Source: an uncultured beta proteobacterium
GTDB lineage: Bacteria; Pseudomonadota; Gammaproteobacteria; Burkholderiales; Gallionellaceae
NCBI GenBank assembly: GCA_963797045.1
Contig: CAWCNZ010000015.1
Coordinates: 118,381-150,380 of the forward strand
Reading direction: 5' to 3'
Length of the DNA stretch: 32,000 nt
Position numbers and translations under genes: made by a program. This document shows, piece by piece, positions 14,498 through 25,122 of the stretch. A model generated the notes under the pieces. It was not told the origin of the DNA. It did no database searches and saw nothing but the letters and a program-made list of their open reading frames with translations. The stretch's first letter is position 1. Every line of letters starts with the position of its first letter.

Positions 14498-14729
14498 AGG
14501 GCGTTTCTAGGAATTCAAAATCCTAAGCAAGACAAGGCGCGAGCAAAAATTGCGACGCAGCATATGCGGTCATGACACGGTGCGGCGGAGCCGTCTGGTG
14601 CGGGAATGACCGCGTGCGCCACCTCCCGCAGACGGCTGCTTCGCAGTAACGTGTCGGTAGCGCAGTATGTGAGTAATTTTTGGGAGCAACGCCGTATTGC
14701 GACGGAGTTTGGATTCTTAGAAATGCCCT
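14498..14729. repeat. about 230-bp imperfect long inverted repeat (MITE-like or structured intergenic element)
   Basis: The termini agggcgtttctaggaattcaaaatcc (14498-14523) and ggagtttggattcttagaaatgccct (14703-14728) are reverse complements at 22/26. The arms pair further inward, including gagccgtctggtgcggg / cccgcagacggctgc. Confidence 0.55.
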
Positions 14730-15030
14730 ACGGTTGTTTCCAGGCCTGGTCAAGCAGCTCCTGCGCCCGGGCATACTTGGCATTGGCCTCATCCAGATCC
14801 TTCCTTGAGGCTGCTGCTTTCTGCCGGTCTTCTTCCAGACGCTTCTGGGAATCTGCCAGACGCTTCTCGGAATCGATCACCTTCTGCAGGTTGTCCTTGT
14901 GGTTCGCTTCTGCTTTTTCCAGGATCTCGCGCGCATATTCCACGCCGACCTGTTGCGCCGAGACATCCTTGGCTTGAGCCAGGGATGTCATCGAAACGAG
15001 CGCTGTGAAGAACAGACCCGTCTTCAGCAC
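14728..15030 (-). CDS. secreted coiled-coil protein (hypothetical)
   Basis: 100 aa with signal peptide MLKTGLFFTALVSMTSLAQA, then a charged helical sequence rich in K/E/A/Q. Confidence 0.6.
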   Translation of the reverse strand: MLKTGLFFTALVSMTSLAQAKDVSAQQVGVEYAREILEKAEANHKDNLQKVIDSEKRLADSQKRLEEDRQKAAASRKDLDEANAKYARAQELLDQAWKQP

Positions 15031-15648: not shown

Positions 15649-15662
15649 TGGCGGAGGCGGTG
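15649..15662. repeat. tRNA-distal att core (copy of the tRNA-Ser 3' end)
   Basis: Exact 14-bp match to 24839-24852. The flanking sequence differs on both sides. Confidence 0.75.
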
Positions 15663-15861: not shown

Positions 15862-16755
15862 CTAACACGTCCATCCCCTTCCAGTAAGATGTCCAGCTTT
15901 TGCGGTTGGCACGTGATGAATGTCGCCCTGGATACCCTCCGTTGCGGGTCCTCCGTATGCCACGACGTTAATCTGGGCAAGTCCAACTTTCTGCTGTAGC
16001 GCAACTGAAGAGATGAACACGTCCCAGTGATAGCCAGCACCGTTGGGTATATTGGGGCGCGCCCAGCCGTTTTCGTGCCGATCCAGCCAAGCTACCTTTC
16101 CCGATACTGTTCCAAAAGCAGAGGTCGTGCCCTTCCACCATTGAAGGGGAGGACAAAAGGGATAATGCGTACCGTGCTGTTGTCTTGGCAGACGCCAATC
16201 GAATCGTGCGGTCCAGTGGTCAATCAAATTGCGGGGGTGATAAACACACAGGAGCTGTGTGGGGCCCATCCCTTGGGGTTGGAGGTGCAATAACCAACGC
16301 GTGTTCTCGTCGAGAGTGCTTTGTCCAATTACGTGATGCACTAGATTTCGACCTAATACCCTTCGCGTAAACATAATCACATCATCACCACTGGCTATAG
16401 CGCGTATAGCGGCTGCAGCCATTCTTTCTTCCCAGGGATTTGGCAGAAATGGCGCCCCAAATAGCTGCAGAAAACCCTTCCTCCACACTACTCCAGCCGT
16501 AACATGATGCTGCTGCGGTGGCAGAGCTGATCTCTGCCCTATCTTGCGAATTTCCTGCAAGGCGTGTTTTGCGGTTGGCCCTAAGTTTCGCTCTAAAGGC
16601 GCCGCATACTGTGTCCACAATTCAGGCCAATACTCCTGAAATGGCGGAAGAGAAATCCCATTCTGCTTGCAGGCTCGCAGCACAAAATCAAACTCGAGTT
16701 GTACCTCAGAGTCTGGCCGTCCGAGAAATAGTGCGGGGTCTAGCAACCCAATCAT
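15862..16755 (-). CDS. hypothetical 297-aa protein coupled to the ATPase (putative effector; two RNLxxH motifs)
   Basis: Its ATG overlaps the ATPase stop (ATGA at 16752-16755). RNLVHH (16333-16350) and RNLIDH (16216-16233) are present. The C-terminus carries GYHWDV...GDIHHV. No family recognised. Confidence 0.7.
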   Translation of the reverse strand: MIGLLDPALFLGRPDSEVQLEFDFVLRACKQNGISLPPFQEYWPELWTQYAAPLERNLGPTAKHALQEIRKIGQRSALPPQQHHVTAGVVWRKGFLQLFGAPFLPNPWEERMAAAAIRAIASGDDVIMFTRRVLGRNLVHHVIGQSTLDENTRWLLHLQPQGMGPTQLLCVYHPRNLIDHWTARFDWRLPRQQHGTHYPFCPPLQWWKGTTSAFGTVSGKVAWLDRHENGWARPNIPNGAGYHWDVFISSVALQQKVGLAQINVVAYGGPATEGIQGDIHHVPTAKAGHLTGRGWTC

Positions 16756-18350
16756 GGTGCCTCATCGGACTCAGGTTCGTCCCCCTCTCGCAGTTCTACA
16801 ACAGTTGAGTTTGGCGTAGCGAGGCCAGTTTTGCCTAACCTTGCGTAGTAAATCGCACTTTCTTCGTCGGTCGACTCGTCCATGAAGTCTGCGGGCCAAA
16901 TTTCCGATACGCCGCCCTCAGCGGTAAGGCGACTAGATGTGACACTAGAAATGCCTTGGGTATCTTGCTCGACGCTCAGCACTACTACATTCTCAAGTAG
17001 CCATTTTTCGAGGTCACTACCAGCGCCAGCCCGAACTGCAAGGCCGCGGAGCCTGCGAACTAAATGGTCGCTATGGGTTTCCACTAAGAGCCTACGGTTT
17101 GCACGCGCGAGACTCACAAGCCAGTGCGCCAAGCGACTCGCGACTTTGGGATGGAGATGGGCCTCAGGCTCTTCAAGCGCGATGTGAGTAAACGACCTGC
17201 ATTGTTTCTCATACTCTGCCAAGGTCATGCTTCCCGAGATGCCGGAGAATCTCAATGGATCGGCAAATAGGCCTAGCTCTACCAGTGGCAACAGGTAACT
17301 CAAGCCACGACCGACATGCAAAAGGCTGGCATCACCAAACAAGAGACGAAACCCAACATCTTGGATTTCTTCAAGCCGCAGAGGTGCGTTGACTGACAAG
17401 GCCTCCAATGTAAGGTTAACGGCCTCAACTAAAGGTCGTCCGAGAACACTATCAGGCGCGGTAACCGACGAGTCGTTAACATCACCTGGCGGCAGGAAAT
17501 GAACAATATCTCTTTGCCTTCGATGCAACAGTTGCGCTGCAAGTTCACCACTGGCCCCAATCTCACTTGGAGCCGTCGTAGCAATCTTAAAGAGGCTCGG
17601 AGGTGATTGCCGGAAAGAACCCAAATAATGCAGTTCAGACAACAAATCCTTCAGCGCTGCCAATGGCTGCGCAAAAAGGATCATGTAAGCGTTGTGCCAC
17701 GCCCGCTGCCGGTGGCGGGGACCGACAGCACTCCGATCTATCTGCAAGTATGGGATAAAGTGATCAAGTTCTACTTGAATATGTTCTGCGACAATCCCAT
17801 TCCACGAGCAAAGCCAAATGCCCTCCTCCCGCCACACTCTCACCGTTGGAGGAGAGACCTCATCCAAGGATTGGAGCTCTATCAATTCAATCTCTGCTGT
17901 GCCTTGGCGGTCGATTGTATGAATCTTAATTGATGTACGAAGCCTCTTTGTATTAGGGGGTGTTGCAAACCACCGCACTCCAGAATTCTTTGCTAAGTTA
18001 TCCAAGTCAGGCGATGCAACACTTGCGATAACCGCCGCCACATCGACATCTGATTCCCATTCAAGCTTTATTACGGGACCCTCCACCTTCGAAGATTGCG
18101 CGGGACGGCCAAAAGTAAGTTCACGAAGGCCAAATGCCTCCACCACTCCTTCTAGTCGAAGCGCCACGTCTGACCTGGGATCGGCAAGAGTCTGCTTAAG
18201 CAGCAAAATACTCTGGATAAGGGTGCTCTTGCCGGAATTATTTCTACCAACAATCACTGTAAGCGGAGCAAGATCAATTCTCGTCTCGGGCTTGAAAGAC
18301 TTAAATCGCTCGATGCAAATGGCGGTAAGTTTGGCATTGGAGCTATTCAT
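16752..18350 (-). CDS. ABC/OLD-type AAA ATPase (AAA_15/AAA_21-like), no fused nuclease domain
   Basis: 532 aa with Walker A GRNNSGKST, signature-like GRGLSYLLPLVELG, Walker B ALEEPEAHLHP, H-loop LLVETHSDH and an acidic C-terminal tail. Confidence 0.85.
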   Translation of the reverse strand: MNSSNAKLTAICIERFKSFKPETRIDLAPLTVIVGRNNSGKSTLIQSILLLKQTLADPRSDVALRLEGVVEAFGLRELTFGRPAQSSKVEGPVIKLEWESDVDVAAVIASVASPDLDNLAKNSGVRWFATPPNTKRLRTSIKIHTIDRQGTAEIELIELQSLDEVSPPTVRVWREEGIWLCSWNGIVAEHIQVELDHFIPYLQIDRSAVGPRHRQRAWHNAYMILFAQPLAALKDLLSELHYLGSFRQSPPSLFKIATTAPSEIGASGELAAQLLHRRQRDIVHFLPPGDVNDSSVTAPDSVLGRPLVEAVNLTLEALSVNAPLRLEEIQDVGFRLLFGDASLLHVGRGLSYLLPLVELGLFADPLRFSGISGSMTLAEYEKQCRSFTHIALEEPEAHLHPKVASRLAHWLVSLARANRRLLVETHSDHLVRRLRGLAVRAGAGSDLEKWLLENVVVLSVEQDTQGISSVTSSRLTAEGGVSEIWPADFMDESTDEESAIYYARLGKTGLATPNSTVVELREGDEPESDEAP

Positions 18351-18362
18351 CTTCCCTATCCC

Positions 18363-18635
18363 CTAGTGTTCATCTGCGCACACTACGACTGTTAGTGCAT
18401 CAACTTCAACTTGCATCACGACAACTATGCAATTTATTGAAAATTGGTCATTTGTGCTTGTACGCGAGTATAGCTTCTGGGCCTCGCAAATGAAATCTTC
18501 CAGCAAGATTCCCGTTTTCAGGGCGGTCTGTTTTCGCAGATGTAGATCAAAAATACCCCCCCACCCCGCAATCCCAATAACGACGGGAGCCGCGAAGGAG
18601 TTCCAATAGCGGCGCGACTTTGCGAGGAGGTACAT
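18363..18635 (-). CDS. hypothetical small protein with an N-terminal hydrophobic segment (first gene of the ATPase operon)
   Basis: 90-aa ORF ending 12 nt before the ATPase start. N-terminus ..RRYWNSFAAPVVIGIAGWGGIF. Its 5' end is duplicated in inverted orientation at 23828-23885. Confidence 0.4.
   Translation of the reverse strand: MYLLAKSRRYWNSFAAPVVIGIAGWGGIFDLHLRKQTALKTGILLEDFICEAQKLYSRTSTNDQFSINCIVVVMQVEVDALTVVVCADEH
18559..18616. repeat. inverted repeat copy 1 (5' end of the 90-aa ORF)
   Basis: The reverse complement matches 23828-23885 at about 52/58 positions by manual alignment. Confidence 0.7.
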
Positions 18636-18691: not shown

Positions 18692-18711
18692 CGATGGGTA
18701 GCACGATGGGG
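18692..18711 (+). promoter_or_regulatory. tandem CGATGGGT/CGATGGGG motif pair, site B, overlapping the int start
   Basis: cgatgggt at 18692-18699 and cgatgggg at 18704-18711 (12-bp period). Each contains a candidate int ATG (18694, 18706). Confidence 0.4.
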
Positions 18712-19917
18712 AAGAGACAAACCGAACTGGGAGCGCTAGCTGTACAGCAGATAAAAAGTAGAGGTATTCACTTCGTTGGCGGCGTTGCCGGACTGGCAAT
18801 CAACGTCACCAAGTCCGGCTCGCGCAGTTGGATTTTGCGCTATCAGGTGGGCGGAAAGCGCAGAGACAAGGGCCTGGGTGGCTATCCTGACGTCACTCTG
18901 GCGCAGGCAAAGGAGGCAGCGAGGGCTGCGCGTGCCAAGATAGCCCACGGAGTTGACCCCATCGAGGATGGCCGCGCTTTGCGTAGCCAGTTGATCGCAT
19001 CCCAAGTTTCGGCCATCACATTCAGCCAAGCCGCAAAACAATATATCGACACTCACGAGGGTAGCTGGCGCAACGCCAAGCATACCCAACAGTGGAGAAA
19101 TACCATTCAGACCTACGCAGACCCCGTTATTGGGAGGGTGCTGATTCGTGATGTGGACTTGCCGCAAATCCTCAAGGTGCTTGAACCCATCTGGCGCACG
19201 AAGACCGAGACCGCCAGCCGGTTGCGTGGACGCATGGAATCCATCTTGGATTGGGCATCCGCCAGAGGCTTTCGCACGGAATCCAACCCTGCAAGGTGGA
19301 AAGGCCTGCTCGATAAGCTACTGCCCTCCCCCGGCAAGATCGCCAAGGCCGACCACCATCGCGCCCTGCCTTACGCAGGTATGCCCGAGTTCATGAAATC
19401 TCTGGCCGAACAACAGGGAATAGCACCCCGTGCTTTGGAATTTGCCATCCTGACCGCATGTCGTTCTGGCGAGGTGCGTGGCGCCAAATGGACGGAGATA
19501 GATATGGACAATGGGGTTTGGACAGTTCCTGCGATCCGCATGAAGGCTGGGAAAGAGCATCGCGTTCCGCTGTCTGCGGCCGCCCTGTCCATCGTCAAGC
19601 TGCAGAAGGAATCCGCATTCTGCGACTTTGTATTTCCAAGTTCGCGTAGCTCGAAGACGTCCGAAGGATCGCCACTTTCGGATATGGCTCTGCTAGCCGT
19701 TCTGCGCAGAATGGAAGTTCCGGCCGTCCCTCACGGCTTCCGCTCCACATTTCGGGATTGGTGCGCCGAAACGACCGACTATCCCAGAGAAGTGGCAGAA
19801 ATGGCTTTGGCTCACACCATTGGTGACAAGGTTGAGGCCGCCTACCGCCGGGGTGACTTATTCGACAAGCGCAAGCAGCTAATGCAGGACTGGGCTGACT
19901 TTGCCGACTCAAAATAG
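18694..19917 (+). CDS. int: tyrosine recombinase/integrase, P4-like (arm-binding DUF4102-type N-terminus)
   Basis: 407 aa. N-terminus ...GLAINVTKSGSRSWILRYQVGGKRRDKGLGGYPDVTLAQAKE. Catalytic region ...TACRSGEVRGAKW...HGFRSTFRDW...AYRRGD. Confidence 0.92.
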   Translation: MGSTMGKRQTELGALAVQQIKSRGIHFVGGVAGLAINVTKSGSRSWILRYQVGGKRRDKGLGGYPDVTLAQAKEAARAARAKIAHGVDPIEDGRALRSQLIASQVSAITFSQAAKQYIDTHEGSWRNAKHTQQWRNTIQTYADPVIGRVLIRDVDLPQILKVLEPIWRTKTETASRLRGRMESILDWASARGFRTESNPARWKGLLDKLLPSPGKIAKADHHRALPYAGMPEFMKSLAEQQGIAPRALEFAILTACRSGEVRGAKWTEIDMDNGVWTVPAIRMKAGKEHRVPLSAAALSIVKLQKESAFCDFVFPSSRSSKTSEGSPLSDMALLAVLRRMEVPAVPHGFRSTFRDWCAETTDYPREVAEMALAHTIGDKVEAAYRRGDLFDKRKQLMQDWADFADSK

Positions 19918-20076: not shown

Positions 20077-20292
20077 ATGAAACAGCCCGCAGAAGCAATA
20101 TCACTACCGATCCTCGTTGGATATATACGTCAGGCAGAATTGCTGAAGATAATCCCATTTTCTTCGGCCACTCTTTGGCGCAAGGTCAAAGCTGGAACCT
20201 TCGTCCAACCGGTAAAACTCTCAGCCAGAGTAACCGCTTGGCCCCGTGCGCAAGTTAATGCATGGATGCAGGAACAGGAGGTGCGGAAATGA
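20077..20292 (+). CDS. alpA: AlpA-family transcriptional regulator/excisionase
   Basis: 71 aa; ...LLKIIPFSSATLWRKVKAGTFVQPVKLSARVTAWPRAQVNAWM is typical of the AlpA/Phage_AlpA HTH. Confidence 0.85.
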   Translation: MKQPAEAISLPILVGYIRQAELLKIIPFSSATLWRKVKAGTFVQPVKLSARVTAWPRAQVNAWMQEQEVRK

Positions 20293-21386
20293 GCGTCTTA
20301 CATAACCTCCCGGCCCCCGTGCAAAATGTACCCGTAGCCCACCCGATCTCTTATGGGAGTCTCACTATGTACTCGGCAAGTTGTTTGCCGTTTCAGCGCA
20401 AGATGCCGTGGCTAATCGATGACATTTTCCCTCTCACAGGACTTGCATGCGTATACGGGGCAAGTGGTGCTGGGAAGTCCTTTATTTGCCTCGATATAGC
20501 CGCCAAAGTCGCAAGCGGCATGAAATGGTTTGGGCATCCGACCAAGCAATGTCGCGTAATCTACATTTGCTTGGAAGGTAGTTCAGGCTTACCTGTCCGC
20601 ACGGCTGCATGGGAAAAGCACCATGGGATACCGTTCCCCGAAGATGTGCAATTCGTAGTCAGTCCTGTTGCGATCAATTCTCCGGCTGATGTTCTCAATG
20701 TAGTCAACCTCATCAAGGTATGGGGTGGTGCCGACGTGATAATCATCGACACACTGAATCGGTCCGCCCCGGGAGCAGAAGAGAATTCATCATCCGACAT
20801 GGGGAAAATTATTGCCGGAGCGTCAGCACTCCAGAAAGCGACGGGCGGTTTAGTGCTTTTCGTCCATCACTCCGGAAAGGAATCTGTCCGCGGCATGCGG
20901 GGGCACTCCAGCCTCCATGCGGCGCAAGATGCCGTGCTTGAAGTGAAACGCAATGAAGGAGGCGCCCATACGGTGACACTGGCCAAGTCCAAGGATGGTG
21001 AGGACGGCATTAGTCACGGCTTTAACTTGGTATCAGTGGAGCTTGAGACTGATGAATCAGGCAAGGTGGACAAATCTTGCGTGGTAGAAGAAATCGACGG
21101 TGCTGTCGCCACGAAAGCGCAGGCGGAACCGAGCGGTAAGCACCAGAAGCTAGTCTTGGCAGCAGCCAGAGAGATTATCGTCAATCAGCGGGCGCAACGT
21201 GAACTGGGCATGCAGGATGCCCCCGAAGGCATCCCATTCCAAGAGATGCTTTCCAAAGCAACTGATGCCCTGGTAAGCGTCGACCTGAAACACCGCAGGC
21301 AAAGGGCGACGGAAGCGCTAGGGAGCCTCATCGAGCAGGGCTATCTGACTTGGAAGGAGGATTTGTTGGCTCTGCCAGCTAACTAA
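20289..21386 (+). CDS. RepA/AAA_25-like (RecA-fold) replication ATPase
   Basis: Walker A GASGAGKS, Walker B VIIIDTLN and HHSGKE are typical of AAA_25/RepA-like helicases of islands and plasmids. The start overlaps the alpA stop (ATGA). Confidence 0.8.
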   Translation: MSVLHNLPAPVQNVPVAHPISYGSLTMYSASCLPFQRKMPWLIDDIFPLTGLACVYGASGAGKSFICLDIAAKVASGMKWFGHPTKQCRVIYICLEGSSGLPVRTAAWEKHHGIPFPEDVQFVVSPVAINSPADVLNVVNLIKVWGGADVIIIDTLNRSAPGAEENSSSDMGKIIAGASALQKATGGLVLFVHHSGKESVRGMRGHSSLHAAQDAVLEVKRNEGGAHTVTLAKSKDGEDGISHGFNLVSVELETDESGKVDKSCVVEEIDGAVATKAQAEPSGKHQKLVLAAAREIIVNQRAQRELGMQDAPEGIPFQEMLSKATDALVSVDLKHRRQRATEALGSLIEQGYLTWKEDLLALPAN

Positions 21387-21544: not shown

Positions 21545-22195
21545 CTAGCTTCCTGTAGCAGGAGTCCATTCCCAGTCCTCATCCTTCAAATTGTCGCTCT
21601 TGGGTAGCCACGAAGAGGGGTGAGTCCGCCGAAAAAGCTGGAGGTTTGCTCCCTTCCCGCCCAATCGGTTGTATATTTCAGCCTGAACCAAATTGCGCTT
21701 GCTGGCACTGGCGGTGCAGCAATTCACTACCACATCCCCTTCCCTTACCGCCGCTTCCAATCGATCTCCGAAGTCTTCTCTCCCCCCATTTCTCCACACC
21801 TCAAGAAAGACTTGATCACGCACACAACTGGTATGAATTCCAAGTGAGCATTGATACTGCACGGCATTCATCAGTATCAAACCATAATCGGATGGGGTAA
21901 TACTCCGCAACACCGTAGCCACACGAGTGCGGATGTTTCTTCCTGTTGCCCCTTTGGCCGGGCCAATGTCCCCCCTGAACTCATCTGAGTGAGGGGATTC
22001 CAGAATCATGATTAGGCACTTCCCGTCCGCCCTGTCCTCTATTCGCCTGCGTTCAAAGTCCTTCTGCAGTTCCTGAAATTTGCATATATCGCCAACGTAT
22101 TGGTCTTTGCACACAGCTGGAGGGACTTTACTTTCTGTAGCTTTACAGAACTCATCCAACTTCTCATGTGCAATCGTTCTGAAATCGATTTTCAT
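21545..22195 (-). CDS. divergent uracil-DNA glycosylase superfamily protein
   Basis: 216 aa. ILESPHSDEFRGDIGPAKGATGRNI aligns to the family-4 UDG motif (GEAPG..E..G.PF.G.AG..L). LMNAVQYQC and the C-terminal THPSS (HPS motif) are also present. Confidence 0.55.
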   Translation of the reverse strand: MKIDFRTIAHEKLDEFCKATESKVPPAVCKDQYVGDICKFQELQKDFERRRIEDRADGKCLIMILESPHSDEFRGDIGPAKGATGRNIRTRVATVLRSITPSDYGLILMNAVQYQCSLGIHTSCVRDQVFLEVWRNGGREDFGDRLEAAVREGDVVVNCCTASASKRNLVQAEIYNRLGGKGANLQLFRRTHPSSWLPKSDNLKDEDWEWTPATGS

Positions 22196-22333
22196 TGCAG
22201 ATTCGGGCCCGATTAAACTTCGATGGGCGCGCAATCCTTCCGGTTACATCACACCGGGAACCTTACGCACCGGATTCATTCTGTACCATATATGCGGGTG
22301 CGTAAAGTCGGGTGGACTGCCAAGATTTTGGCG

Positions 22334-22627
22334 ATGAGTCGAGACGATGCACTACTGGAGGCGTTTGCTGCGGAGCTGAAAGCACGGCGGGCAGCGCTGA
22401 AACTGTCGCAGGAAGAACTTGCTCACCGCGCCGAAATCAACCGGACATACATAGCAAAGCTGGAGCTCGCACAGAATCAGCCGACACTGTGCGTATTGCA
22501 CCAACTGGCCCTAGCCCTCGACGATGAGTTACCGGAAATACTTCAGGCGGTCTTGATACGCTACAAACGGAGTAAGCCAGCGCCAGCCACGACAGGGGCA
22601 CGAACTACCCGCCAGCCACGGAAATAG
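22334..22627 (+). CDS. XRE-family HTH transcriptional regulator
   Basis: 97 aa; LKLSQEELAHRAEINRTYIAKLELAQNQPTLCVLHQLALAL is a canonical HTH_3. Divergent from the UDG-like gene. Confidence 0.85.
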   Translation: MSRDDALLEAFAAELKARRAALKLSQEELAHRAEINRTYIAKLELAQNQPTLCVLHQLALALDDELPEILQAVLIRYKRSKPAPATTGARTTRQPRK

Positions 22628-22653: not shown

Positions 22654-22941
22654 TTAAGAGAAGTACTTCCTTGCTAACGTCTCGTCACCCCAGCAGAAGT
22701 TGGAGTACATGCCGTCCCGTAGCTCGCGGTACACATGCCCTAAATACAATCCACGCAGACTTACCGCTACGATGCTGAAAAGCATGTTGAGAACGAAATC
22801 TGAAACCACAGCGAAGATGATCTTCTGGGATGGGGTTGCCGCGCTGTCCTTCGTCAGGAAATACTCGGCAACCCCGCACTCACCATCAACCTGAATGGCC
22901 TCCTCGAAGGAGGTGGCATGAATTGGAATGATATAAAGCAC
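22654..22941 (-). CDS. hypothetical protein with one hydrophobic segment
   Basis: 95-aa ORF, last gene of the lipoprotein/Zn-ribbon operon. Hydrophobic stretch IIFAVVSDFVLNMLFSIVAV. Confidence 0.45.
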   Translation of the reverse strand: MLYIIPIHATSFEEAIQVDGECGVAEYFLTKDSAATPSQKIIFAVVSDFVLNMLFSIVAVSLRGLYLGHVYRELRDGMYSNFCWGDETLARKYFS

Positions 22942-23148: not shown

Positions 23149-23427
23149 TTATTGCTTCTTGGCTCGCTCAAAGCAAACGGACGCAGACGTACCAACCTTG
23201 TGGTCAGTCGTGTACTCCGACACGTAGACCATTTTCCACCCGTCATACTTTGGGAACAGTTTTGCCATTTCCGCGTTGTCCCTCATGTCGATTTCTTGGC
23301 ATCTTGTCTCTATACCTGAACCGCTGGCGACGGATAGCCCAGAGTCCCATTTTGCCGATGTGATAACGGCCGCTTGGCAGCCTGCCAGAACTAAGCATAC
23401 GGTTAATGCGCTTAATGCAACTTTCAT
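23149..23427 (-). CDS. lipoprotein (hypothetical)
   Basis: 92 aa with signal plus lipobox MKVALSALTVCLVLAGC. First gene of a three-gene minus-strand operon. Confidence 0.65.
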   Translation of the reverse strand: MKVALSALTVCLVLAGCQAAVITSAKWDSGLSVASGSGIETRCQEIDMRDNAEMAKLFPKYDGWKMVYVSEYTTDHKVGTSASVCFERAKKQ

Positions 23428-23454: not shown

Positions 23455-23516
23455 AAATTAATCTCGAAATTAATGATTAATTGCTCAAATTAATTTCACC
23501 AACTAATTGCATTAAT
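23455..23516. promoter_or_regulatory. AT-rich region with iterated AAATTAAT boxes
   Basis: aaattaat at 23455, 23467 and 23487, with attaat(t) variants at 23476 and 23511, immediately upstream of the lipoprotein operon. Confidence 0.4.
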
Positions 23517-23531
23517 TTCCCCAGCATCGAA

Positions 23532-23732
23532 TTACTTCAGGCCATCAAGTACCGACGGATGGCGACGCAGGATATCCAGCAGCGCCATTCGCTCTGCCTG
23601 GGCGCGAGGTACATTCGAGTCGAACTCGATAATTCCGGCCCGCTCCTCAAAGTCCTCGCGCTGACCTGCGTCGAGTACTTTGACCAACTCGACGACGAGC
23701 TTGTCCTCCGGCTCTTCCATGCAATGCTCCAA
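23532..23732 (-). CDS. hypothetical small acidic protein
   Basis: 66 aa. ERAGIIEFDSNVPRAQAERMAL resembles a motif I recall from phage and ICE accessory proteins. No firm assignment. Confidence 0.45.
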   Translation of the reverse strand: MEHCMEEPEDKLVVELVKVLDAGQREDFEERAGIIEFDSNVPRAQAERMALLDILRRHPSVLDGLK

Positions 23733-23802
23733 ACCCTGAATAGAAATAGGGCTGCAATTAGTTGCGGCGAAATTTTGGGGAGAATTTGGTTGGAGGGGAA
23801 AA

Positions 23803-23898
23803 ATGCAGCGGATGCGCCTTCGAAACCCGCGCCGTTATTGGAACTCCTTTGCGGCTCCCGTCGTTATTGGGTTTGCAAGGAGGGGGATTACTGATTAG
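23803..23898 (+). pseudogene. truncated paralogue of the 5' end of the 90-aa ORF (31 codons)
   Basis: MQRMRLRNPRRYWNSFAAPVVIGFARRGITD* versus MYLLAKSRRYWNSFAAPVVIGIAGWGGIFDL... A strong SD (ggagggg) is retained. Stop TAG at 23896-23898. Confidence 0.5.
23828..23885. repeat. inverted repeat copy 2
   Basis: Matches the reverse complement of 18559-18616 at about 52/58 positions. Confidence 0.7.
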
Positions 23899-24007: not shown

Positions 24008-24556
24008 TTAGGCGATTCCCAGTGAGCTCGCCCTTTCCAGAAAGGCCTGTTCTGCATTTCTAGGAAGCAGTGGTTCGCTGGGCAGTCCGTCCGCCAGACC
24101 TGCAATCGGTAGAGGTGGGAGCAACGCATCTGGCTGATTCGGCATGTATGCTCGAAGCTCCAATGAAAGGATGTCATTATCAACTTCATGCACTTCCTTG
24201 GGCATCGGCCACGGCAGGCAAAATCGTTCTGCGACAGCGCATTGAATGGCCTCTTCTATCCTGACGTAGTCACCCAGTTGCCGCTTGGCTGGACGCGGAA
24301 TGTCCACAACGTAGGCCTCGCTTGCATCATGGAGCAGCGCCCAGCGCAAAAGGGTCTGGTTGTCTCCATATCGTTGCCTCATCAGTTCAGCGGCCAAAAT
24401 GCTGTGTTCCGCTACTGAATAGAACTGACTGCAATGACCGCCAAAACGGCAGAGCTTAGACAATGCACTGGCAATATCCTGAAGTTCGATTATCGAAGGG
24501 GATGGCTTGAGAATGTCGAACCATTTGCCAGTTGAAGTCAGAATGGACGAGGTCAT
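24008..24556 (-). CDS. HD-domain metal-dependent phosphohydrolase
   Basis: 182 aa starting at MTSSILTSTGKWFD. RFGGH...YSVAEHS...LLHDASEAYVVDIPRPAK matches the H..HD..D pattern of phage/island HD hydrolases. Confidence 0.75.
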   Translation of the reverse strand: MTSSILTSTGKWFDILKPSPSIIELQDIASALSKLCRFGGHCSQFYSVAEHSILAAELMRQRYGDNQTLLRWALLHDASEAYVVDIPRPAKRQLGDYVRIEEAIQCAVAERFCLPWPMPKEVHEVDNDILSLELRAYMPNQPDALLPPLPIAGLADGLPSEPLLPRNAEQAFLERASSLGIA

Positions 24557-24774
24557 ACGTAGTTCTTTCTGGAATTTGAGTGGGCGTAATCCTAACCACA
24601 ATTCCGCCTGTACGCGAAATTTAGCTGTATGCGGCGATCAATGCCTTGGTAGATAAGGACTTCCCCTCCAACTCCTTTCGGCGTTGGCTTCTAGCTGCAA
24701 CTAGGGAATAGATTGGCCGGGGATTCCCGGTATGCGAACGGCCTGATGCCTGTATCACTACGTATCAAGCCAGA

Positions 24775-24794: not shown

Positions 24795-24838
24795 AAAGAC
24801 CCATTACCACTAAAGAGCCCTTGAAAGACAAGGGATAC

Positions 24839-24928
24839 TGGCGGAGGCGGTGAGATTCGAACTCACGAACGACTCGCATCGTTGCCAGTTTTCAAGACTG
24901 GTGCATTCAACCGCTCTGCCACACCTCC
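24839..24928 (-). tRNA. tRNA-Ser (anticodon UGA), with encoded CCA
   Basis: Minus-strand sequence GGAGGTGTGGCAGAGCGGTTGAATGCACCAGTCTTGAAAACTGGCAACGATGCGAGTCGTTCGTGAGTTCGAATCTCACCGCCTCCGCCA. It has a long variable arm and anticodon loop CTTGAAA. It closely resembles E. coli serT as I recall it. Confidence 0.92.
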
Positions 24929-25122
24929 AAATGACGCTAGGTGCCGGCCTACGGCTCAAGGTTCACCCGAAAGTTCCTTCACCCACTGCACAGCCAGCAC
25001 ACAATGGCGCGCATGATACCTGAAATACCCCACGTCCCCAACGGGCAAGGTTGCAACTTTGACACTGCTTCTGTAGTCTCACGCCCGTAGTCGAAACCGA
25101 CCCGTTTTCTCAGGAGGAACTC

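Follow-up and report, generated by a model that had tools for sequence, protein, structure and literature searches.

An NsnA-less ABC ATPase gene pair in a tRNA-Ser island of a Gallionellaceae bacterium, probably related to the Menshen and HEC-03 defence systems

The question raised by this locus is whether three closely packed minus-strand open reading frames (ORFs) on a low-GC island form a defence system and, if so, whether that system is a new one. The locus occupies positions 15862 to 18635 of a 32,000-nucleotide (nt) stretch, referred to hereafter as the window, of contig CAWCNZ010000015.1 from an uncultured member of the Gallionellaceae (assembly GCA_963797045.1). A reading made from the letters alone (the sequence-only reading) had proposed an undescribed defence operon encoding a small membrane protein, an ATP-binding cassette (ABC) ATPase and a 297-amino-acid (aa) partner that could not be assigned to a family. 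The placement on a mobile island and the defence association were upheld, as the pair is cargo of such an island and its relatives occur in defence-rich neighbourhoods, but the pair is not wholly undescribed, because its ATPase falls in the NsnB/HEC-03 group and HEC-03 provides a precedent without NsnA. Judging from sequence comparisons and genomic contexts, we consider it rather likely that the ATPase and its partner constitute an anti-phage or anti-mobile-element module of two genes that is complete in itself and forms part of the cargo of a 9.2-kb tRNA-Ser island. The pair, which lacks NsnA, is probably related to Menshen and HEC-03 and would have a new effector. The genes concerned are as follows:

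18363-18635, minus strand: 90-aa ORF, from the ORF list
16752-18350, minus strand: ABC ATPase gene, 532 aa, of the NsnB/HEC-03 (DUF3696-tailed, OLD-ABC type) lineage
16752-16755, minus strand: ATGA stop/start overlap in the sequence, coupling the ATPase and partner genes
15862-16755, minus strand: partner gene, 297 aa, presumed effector

The three ORFs, the 12-nt gap between the 90-aa ORF and the ATPase gene (18351-18362) and the ATGA overlap were all found where they had been described. The ATPase and the partner are a conserved, translationally coupled two-gene unit. Co-occurrence of the two genes as neighbours, which had been put forward as a check, was confirmed in a locus scan using one genome per species: 26 loci encoded a relative of the 297-aa protein and in 24 of these an ATPase homologue was located directly upstream on the same strand, the two exceptions being a locus on a contig that breaks off at the partner gene and one represented by a fragment of 76 residues. 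The partner loci came from Myxococcota, Gammaproteobacteria, Cyanobacteria, Magnetococcales, Leptospiraceae, Limisphaerales, Vulcanimicrobiota, Pseudomonas and Cupriavidus. A 4-nt stop/start overlap was present in 17 of 28 related loci and probable in 6 further ones, where the alignment begins one codon late. The identities of ATPase and partner to the respective window proteins were correlated (r = 0.96). Clustering of all neighbouring ORFs from the 24 loci identified no third conserved gene family, and upstream neighbours of the pair in other loci were unrelated housekeeping or restriction-modification genes. Frameshifts or truncations affected the partner or the ATPase gene in four loci, which we count in favour of a defence role since such decay is common for costly defence genes.

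The unit comprises two genes rather than three because the 90-aa ORF is not conserved. No similarity to this ORF was detected by tblastn in the related loci, and it had no family match in Pfam. The membrane protein that it had been taken to encode is not supported by these data, its hydrophobic stretches being weak and one of them containing E and D residues. As a third operon gene the 90-aa ORF was rejected for its lack of conservation across related loci, so that of the three-gene operon originally proposed the ATPase-partner pair stands. Among relatives whose upstream region differs, the nearest, locus L029, encodes an ATPase 80% and a partner 69% identical to those of the window. Comparison with the upstream regions of L029 and L030 revealed one conserved block with 90.6% identity to both, the remaining upstream DNA being unalignable:

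18467-18498, minus strand: 32-nt conserved block upstream of the ATPase gene, inside the 90-aa ORF, from the alignment with L029 and L030

This block contains a promoter-like TTCATT-16 nt-TATACT, which a strict consensus promoter scan did not call, and probably represents the promoter of the pair. The 344-nt divergent region is probably a promoter with a 5' leader and the 90-aa ORF spurious, given that the ORF lacks tblastn matches and that only the 32-nt block is common to L029.

The motifs of the 532-aa ATPase are located as follows:

18222-18248, minus strand: Walker A GRNNSGKST, residues 35-43, with K41
17607-17627, minus strand: Q-loop position with Arg, YLGSFRQ
17271-17312, minus strand: GRG signature GRGLSYLLPLVELG, residues 347-360
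17148-17180, minus strand: Walker B ALEEPEAHLHP, residues 391-401
17064-17090, minus strand: H-loop LLVETHSDH, residues 421-429
16872-16919, minus strand: DUF3696-like tail motif EGGVSEIWPADFMDES, residues 478-493, putative docking site for the partner
16755-16787, minus strand: acidic C-terminal end EGDEPESDEAP, residues 522-532, recognised by its conservation

The Walker A, signature, Walker B and H-loop sequences had been quoted correctly in the sequence-only reading, as had the position of K41, and all four were invariant or near-invariant in an alignment of 43 homologues. In this alignment K41, E393, E394 and H426 were invariant, as were G347-R348-G349 and R247 in the ATPase clade and, in the tail, W485, P486, F489, M490, D491 and E492. 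The acidic end had the consensus EGxEPExDxAP after a variable linker, with P526 invariant and E525 and P532 nearly so. ATP hydrolysis by the ATPase appears plausible from its sequence because both Walker B glutamates, E393 and E394, are kept, unlike in the NsnB proteins of S. silvestris (EN) and Gluconobacter (DS).

Pfam reported only AAA_15 and AAA_21 on the 532-aa protein, with no TOPRIM or HNH domain, as the sequence-only reading had stated, and did not report DUF3696. A total of 488 ATPase homologues were retrieved at E <= 1e-10; among the best 120 of these most were about 520-560 aa long and none carried a DUF3696 Pfam annotation. The AlphaFold2 (AF2) model of the ATPase (pLDDT, for predicted local distance difference test, 82.8) consisted of a head of the SMC/Rad50/OLD type, a beta-rich insert and a disordered tail (residues 482-532), residues 482-522 having a pLDDT below 50 in this monomer model. 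Foldseek searches with the model returned the retron Eco8 effector, SMC heads, GajA, Rad50 and PtuA, with E values of about 1e-9 to 1e-8 for GajA and PtuA. A retron association, prompted by the top match to Eco8, was rejected, since the island lacks both a gene for reverse transcriptase and an Rfam non-coding RNA.

The best PADLOC match of the ATPase was Menshen NsnB (2.8e-49, profile positions 2-337 of 345), followed by PDC-M55A (6.6e-32), HEC-03B (2.8e-24) and AriA (2e-23), and by GajA and Old at about 1e-14. For calibration, a canonical NsnB, encoded on a Gluconobacter plasmid in a DUF262-DUF3696-hypothetical operon, scored 2.6e-94 against the NsnB model and two long relatives without NsnA scored about 7e-77, all of them with the same order of PADLOC matches. 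In NsnB a GxG motif replaces SGG, Arg replaces the Q-loop Gln and a DUF3696 tail is present (PMC12065111). BLASTP against the canonical Gluconobacter plasmid protein aligned the GxG signature, the Walker B motif, the H-loop and the tail, where EGGVSEIWPADFMDES of the window corresponded to EGGVSD-WPPGFFDQS; the same tail motif also aligned with WPKGFFD of the ATPase from one of the NsnA-less pairs (L027, below). Against the published HEC-03 ATPase, BLASTP gave E = 4e-16 with 24% identity in an end-to-end alignment of 445 columns. On these sequence comparisons the ATPase belongs with the DUF3696-tailed NsnB/HEC-03 ATPases.

The resemblance to Menshen extends beyond the NsnB-type GxG signature, the Arg at the Q-loop position and the WPxGFFD tail, in that the downstream gene occupies the nsnC position and its product is of NsnC-like size (about 300 aa), with an N-terminal alpha/beta domain and a C-terminal domain that may correspond to the inPIN-plus-effector layout of NsnC. 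However, the gene for NsnA (ParB-DUF262 with ParBDB) is absent here and in related loci: immediately upstream of the ATPase gene are the 90-aa ORF, without a family match, and a divergent integrase, and among the ten upstream neighbours scanned in related loci no DUF262 was found (valyl-tRNA synthetase, aconitase, XhoI and others being present instead). The partner matches no NsnC model, and besides its differing Walker B the window ATPase has larger inserts and an extra acidic C-terminal tail, the EGxEPExDxAP end shared by its clade and lacking in canonical NsnB.

In HEC-03 of Pseudomonas cichorii the gene of a DUF3696 ABC ATPase overlaps the one after it, which encodes a 157-aa PIN protein, and phage defence requires both genes (bioRxiv 10.1101/2024.01.29.577857). 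The window pair has the same design, two genes with a DUF3696-type ABC ATPase preceding an overlapping gene for the effector (presumed in the window pair) and no NsnA, but its partner is a two-domain protein of 297 aa rather than a VapC-like PIN effector of 157 aa, and its ATPase is about 70 residues longer and has NsnB, not HEC-03, as its top model. With Septu, PARIS and Gabija the pair would share the principle of an OLD-type ABC ATPase governing a separate or fused toxic effector, whereas the profile scores of its ATPase for these systems are far weaker than for NsnB. With the NCBIfam PtuA model the ATPase scored 21 bits against a cut-off of 500, and neither the partner nor its 44 aligned homologues had an HNH family match, unlike Septu; the AriA score of PARIS was far below that of NsnB and the partner had no TOPRIM or DUF4435 match; and the GajA and Old models matched only through their ATPase halves, the window protein having no TOPRIM domain, while the helicase gene of Gabija is absent from the island.

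Unnamed pairs without NsnA were also observed in P2-like Klebsiella phages, among them Kp4845-1 (OK490394; L039, 2352-5298), and on a conjugative Acetobacter plasmid (NZ_CP021526; L027, 2948-5765). They resemble the window pair in having an ATPase with NsnB as top PADLOC match (about 7e-77), an overlapping partner gene, no DUF262 and a mobile host element, and differ from it in the length of their ATPases (605-648 aa) and partners (about 335 aa). The two partners have a C-terminal domain in common (E = 6e-12), and showed no similarity to the 297-aa family and no PADLOC model match.

As regards the 297-aa partner, the sequence-only reading had noted that it shows none of the features of PtuB, AriB or GajB, and indeed no profile library gave a match: searches with the protein alone found nothing in PADLOC, Pfam, NCBIfam, PHROGs or PDB sequences. 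The earlier statement that the pair could not be placed in a named family consequently holds for the partner and not for the ATPase, and the PADLOC search that had been suggested likewise answered for one protein of the two. Only noise was obtained when the 44 aligned homologues were compared with Pfam one by one and when the profile of their alignment (A1) was compared with PDB sequences. All 165 homologues of the partner are unnamed or hypothetical. An exhaustive hidden Markov model (HMM) search among 1.84 billion cluster representatives recovered 130 relatives, nearly all of a single architecture of about 300 aa or fragments thereof, and on this basis the family is limited in size and uniform in architecture. 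Shuffling of the C-terminal domain, as in NsnC and polymorphic toxins, was considered and not seen among the 130 relatives. Two longer proteins matched in part, P0362 (590 aa) only to profile positions 240-297, at its C-terminus, and P0369 (415 aa) only to positions 153-291, at its N-terminus; these may be fusions or assembly artefacts.

The AF2 model of the partner (pLDDT 92.3; predicted template modelling score, pTM, 0.90) showed two domains, residues 1-130 with alternating strands and helices (alpha/beta) and residues 131-297 being mostly beta. The N-terminal domain as modelled might be Rossmann- or PIN-like. Residues D6, R131, R136, N137, R175, N176, D186 and D225 were invariant in A1, as were H243-W244-D245, N263, H281, eight Trp residues and C170; C201 and the C-terminal C297 were near-invariant. 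Conservation of this kind is suggestive of an enzyme and, perhaps, of a metal site. Within residues 170-297 (window 15865-16248) H173 was also nearly invariant, and H280 and H281 were conserved. C170, H173, C201, C297, H280 and H281 could form a structural or catalytic metal site. A His-Me/HNH reading of H243...N263...H281 was rejected, as the predicted order is strand-helix-strand-strand, not beta-beta-alpha, and no HNH profile matched.

The genomic contexts of the pair point to defence. In L010 (99-12349) it lies between drmD-drmMI and drmA of DISARM, with the partner gene frameshifted, and it is located immediately upstream of drmA in L001 (107-5614; DISARM) and in L006 (6403-9505), where drmA is an N-terminal fragment only. 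In a Pseudomonas genome the pair adjoins XhoI and an Eco57I-type methylase, and on an integrative and conjugative element (ICE)-like contig with a conjugative coupling protein it adjoins a type ISP restriction enzyme. One locus has HNH_2 and toxin-antitoxin genes on one flank and a type I restriction-modification system with GmrSD on the other, and another occupies the margin of a prophage-like element carrying VapE and an S24 repressor. Further neighbours included DarT/DarG, mad2 of MADS, and ScaI. Immediately upstream of the pair in L034 (4155-6121) and L035 (559-2525) is a second pair, consisting of an AAA_15/AAA_21 ATPase (394 aa) and a DUF3226 protein, so that two ABC-ATPase modules stand in tandem in these loci.

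In the window itself the pair is part of an island of about 9.2 kb bounded by attachment (att) repeats, with the following features:

15649-15662, plus strand: tRNA-distal att repeat, a 14-bp exact copy of the tRNA-Ser 3' end
18694-19917, plus strand: tyrosine integrase gene, divergent from the ATPase operon (Pfam Arm-DNA-bind_3, Phage_int_M and Phage_integrase)
20262-21386: AAA_25 protein
22223-22627: HTH_3 protein
21545-22234, 22654-22941, 23149-23427, 23481-23894 and 24008-24601: ORFs without a family match
24839-24928, minus strand: tRNA-Ser(tga) gene, the integration target (ARAGORN; Rfam tRNA, 58.5 bits)

The exact 14-bp repeat TGGCGGAGGCGGTG occurs at 15649-15662 and at 24839-24852, the latter copy being the tRNA-Ser 3' end and the proximal att site; two matches were seen in 0 of 100 shuffled controls. 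GC content is 0.49-0.55 within the island and 0.60-0.65 in its flanks. The repeat, the integrase and the GC content thus corroborate the location given by the sequence-only reading, between the tRNA-distal att repeat and the integrase of a lower-GC island. Besides the integrase, the island encodes an AlpA-like regulator, the AAA_25 protein and the helix-turn-helix (HTH) protein. Its description as satellite-like was not substantiated, since no capsid or packaging genes were found among the island genes. Just beyond the island, a 21-nt tandem direct repeat with 90% identity (14831-14872) falls within a 100-aa minus-strand ORF (14728-15030). At 24802-24942, overlapping the tRNA-Ser gene, Rfam gave a match to the small RNA sX4 that stayed below threshold (34.7 bits; gathering score 70) and probably reflects the tRNA itself.

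If the pair is an anti-phage or anti-mobile-element module, its ATPase would probably assemble into ATP-dependent oligomers, by analogy with NsnB, GajA, PtuA and AriA; an NsnB4-NsnC2 assembly has been predicted, and Septu, PARIS and Gabija complexes have been solved (PMC12065111). Because a sensor of the NsnA type (ParB-DUF262) is absent, infection would probably be sensed by the ATPase itself, with its enlarged, beta-rich inserts as the likely sensing surface. The partner would probably be held through the DUF3696-like C-terminal tail of the ATPase, and a phage cue would, through ATP binding or hydrolysis, lead to its release or activation. Its C-terminal domain, with invariant His, Asp, Asn, Arg and Trp, is probably a toxic enzyme, most likely acting on nucleic acid, and this activity would stop phage replication or host growth. 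The further proposal that the partner is an enzyme of a fold and chemistry without solved or described relatives, controlled by an ABC ATPase that senses without a DNA sensor, is a tentative one and somewhat doubtful.

A number of observations weigh against this interpretation. Foldseek searches with the partner model against PDB and BFVD returned nothing, not even a PIN domain, and the comparison of A1 with the PIN protein of HEC-03 gave an hhalign probability of 0.2. As the partner has no recognisable catalytic fold, its role as effector and its nuclease chemistry are guesses. Docking of the partner on the ATPase tail is suggested by analogy with AlphaFold3 models that put NsnC on the DUF3696 tails of NsnB (PMC12065111). 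No partner homologues were found in 50,697 phage and 72,556 plasmid records, collections in which only distant ATPase relatives were detected, and several loci have housekeeping neighbours only.

These points have to be set beside other explanations of the pair. It might stabilise its island by addiction in the manner of a toxin-antitoxin (TA) module, the partner being the toxin and the ATPase the antidote, so that loss of the element kills the cell. Carriage as cargo of the island here, and of the ICE-like contig and the prophage-like element elsewhere, would agree with such a role, as would the ATGA coupling, typical of toxin-antitoxin pairs, and the Pfam label of AAA_21 ('AbiEii toxin, type IV TA'). 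We nevertheless regard it as unlikely, as chromosomal loci with housekeeping neighbours and without mobility genes are numerous, and the closest characterised relatives are phage-defence systems. The two roles also overlap, since abortive-infection systems often act like toxin-antitoxin pairs. Dependence on a larger system, for instance DISARM or restriction-modification, with the pair as an accessory module, would explain its position immediately upstream of drmA in three loci (with drmMI on the other side in one of them). Yet DISARM genes are absent from most loci, the window included, and independent systems embedded in DISARM, BREX and restriction-modification loci are a described phenomenon, which makes this quite unlikely.

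It is very improbable that the pair is a housekeeping DNA-maintenance ATPase of the SMC/RecF/Rad50 kind with an accessory protein. The window ATPase has no coiled coil, and the family is rare, the partner having only 130 clusters among 1.84 billion representatives; the patchy distribution across phyla, the variable contexts, the pseudogenes and the position of the window pair in a low-GC island all argue in the same direction, against the Foldseek matches to SMC and Rad50 heads and weak matches to SMC_N and RecF profiles. Hardly credible, finally, is a Menshen system in decay after the loss of nsnA. In its favour are the top PADLOC match, NsnB, and the nsnB-nsnC gene order, but a conserved third gene was found in 0 of 24 loci, the ATPases, about 530 aa long and in every case longer than canonical NsnB, group in a tight clade, and both genes are under clear purifying selection.

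Systems combining an ABC ATPase with an effector (Gabija, Septu, PARIS, Menshen and HEC-01 to HEC-04) form a major branch of bacterial immunity. Because the family described here is rare, its ecological weight is small and its value lies in mechanism. The partner, with a confidently predicted structure that has no Foldseek match and with a striking array of invariant His, Asp, Asn, Arg, Trp and Cys residues, may add a new effector activity. If it is indeed an enzyme without described relatives, controlled by an ABC ATPase that senses without a DNA sensor, the partner would define a new class of effectors in ABC-ATPase immunity, and the system would naturally test the abilities of NsnB-type ATPases in the absence of NsnA. 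The pair is strongly conserved, lacks NsnA and has an ATPase whose catalytic motifs are intact; it could reveal whether that protein can be the sensor on its own.

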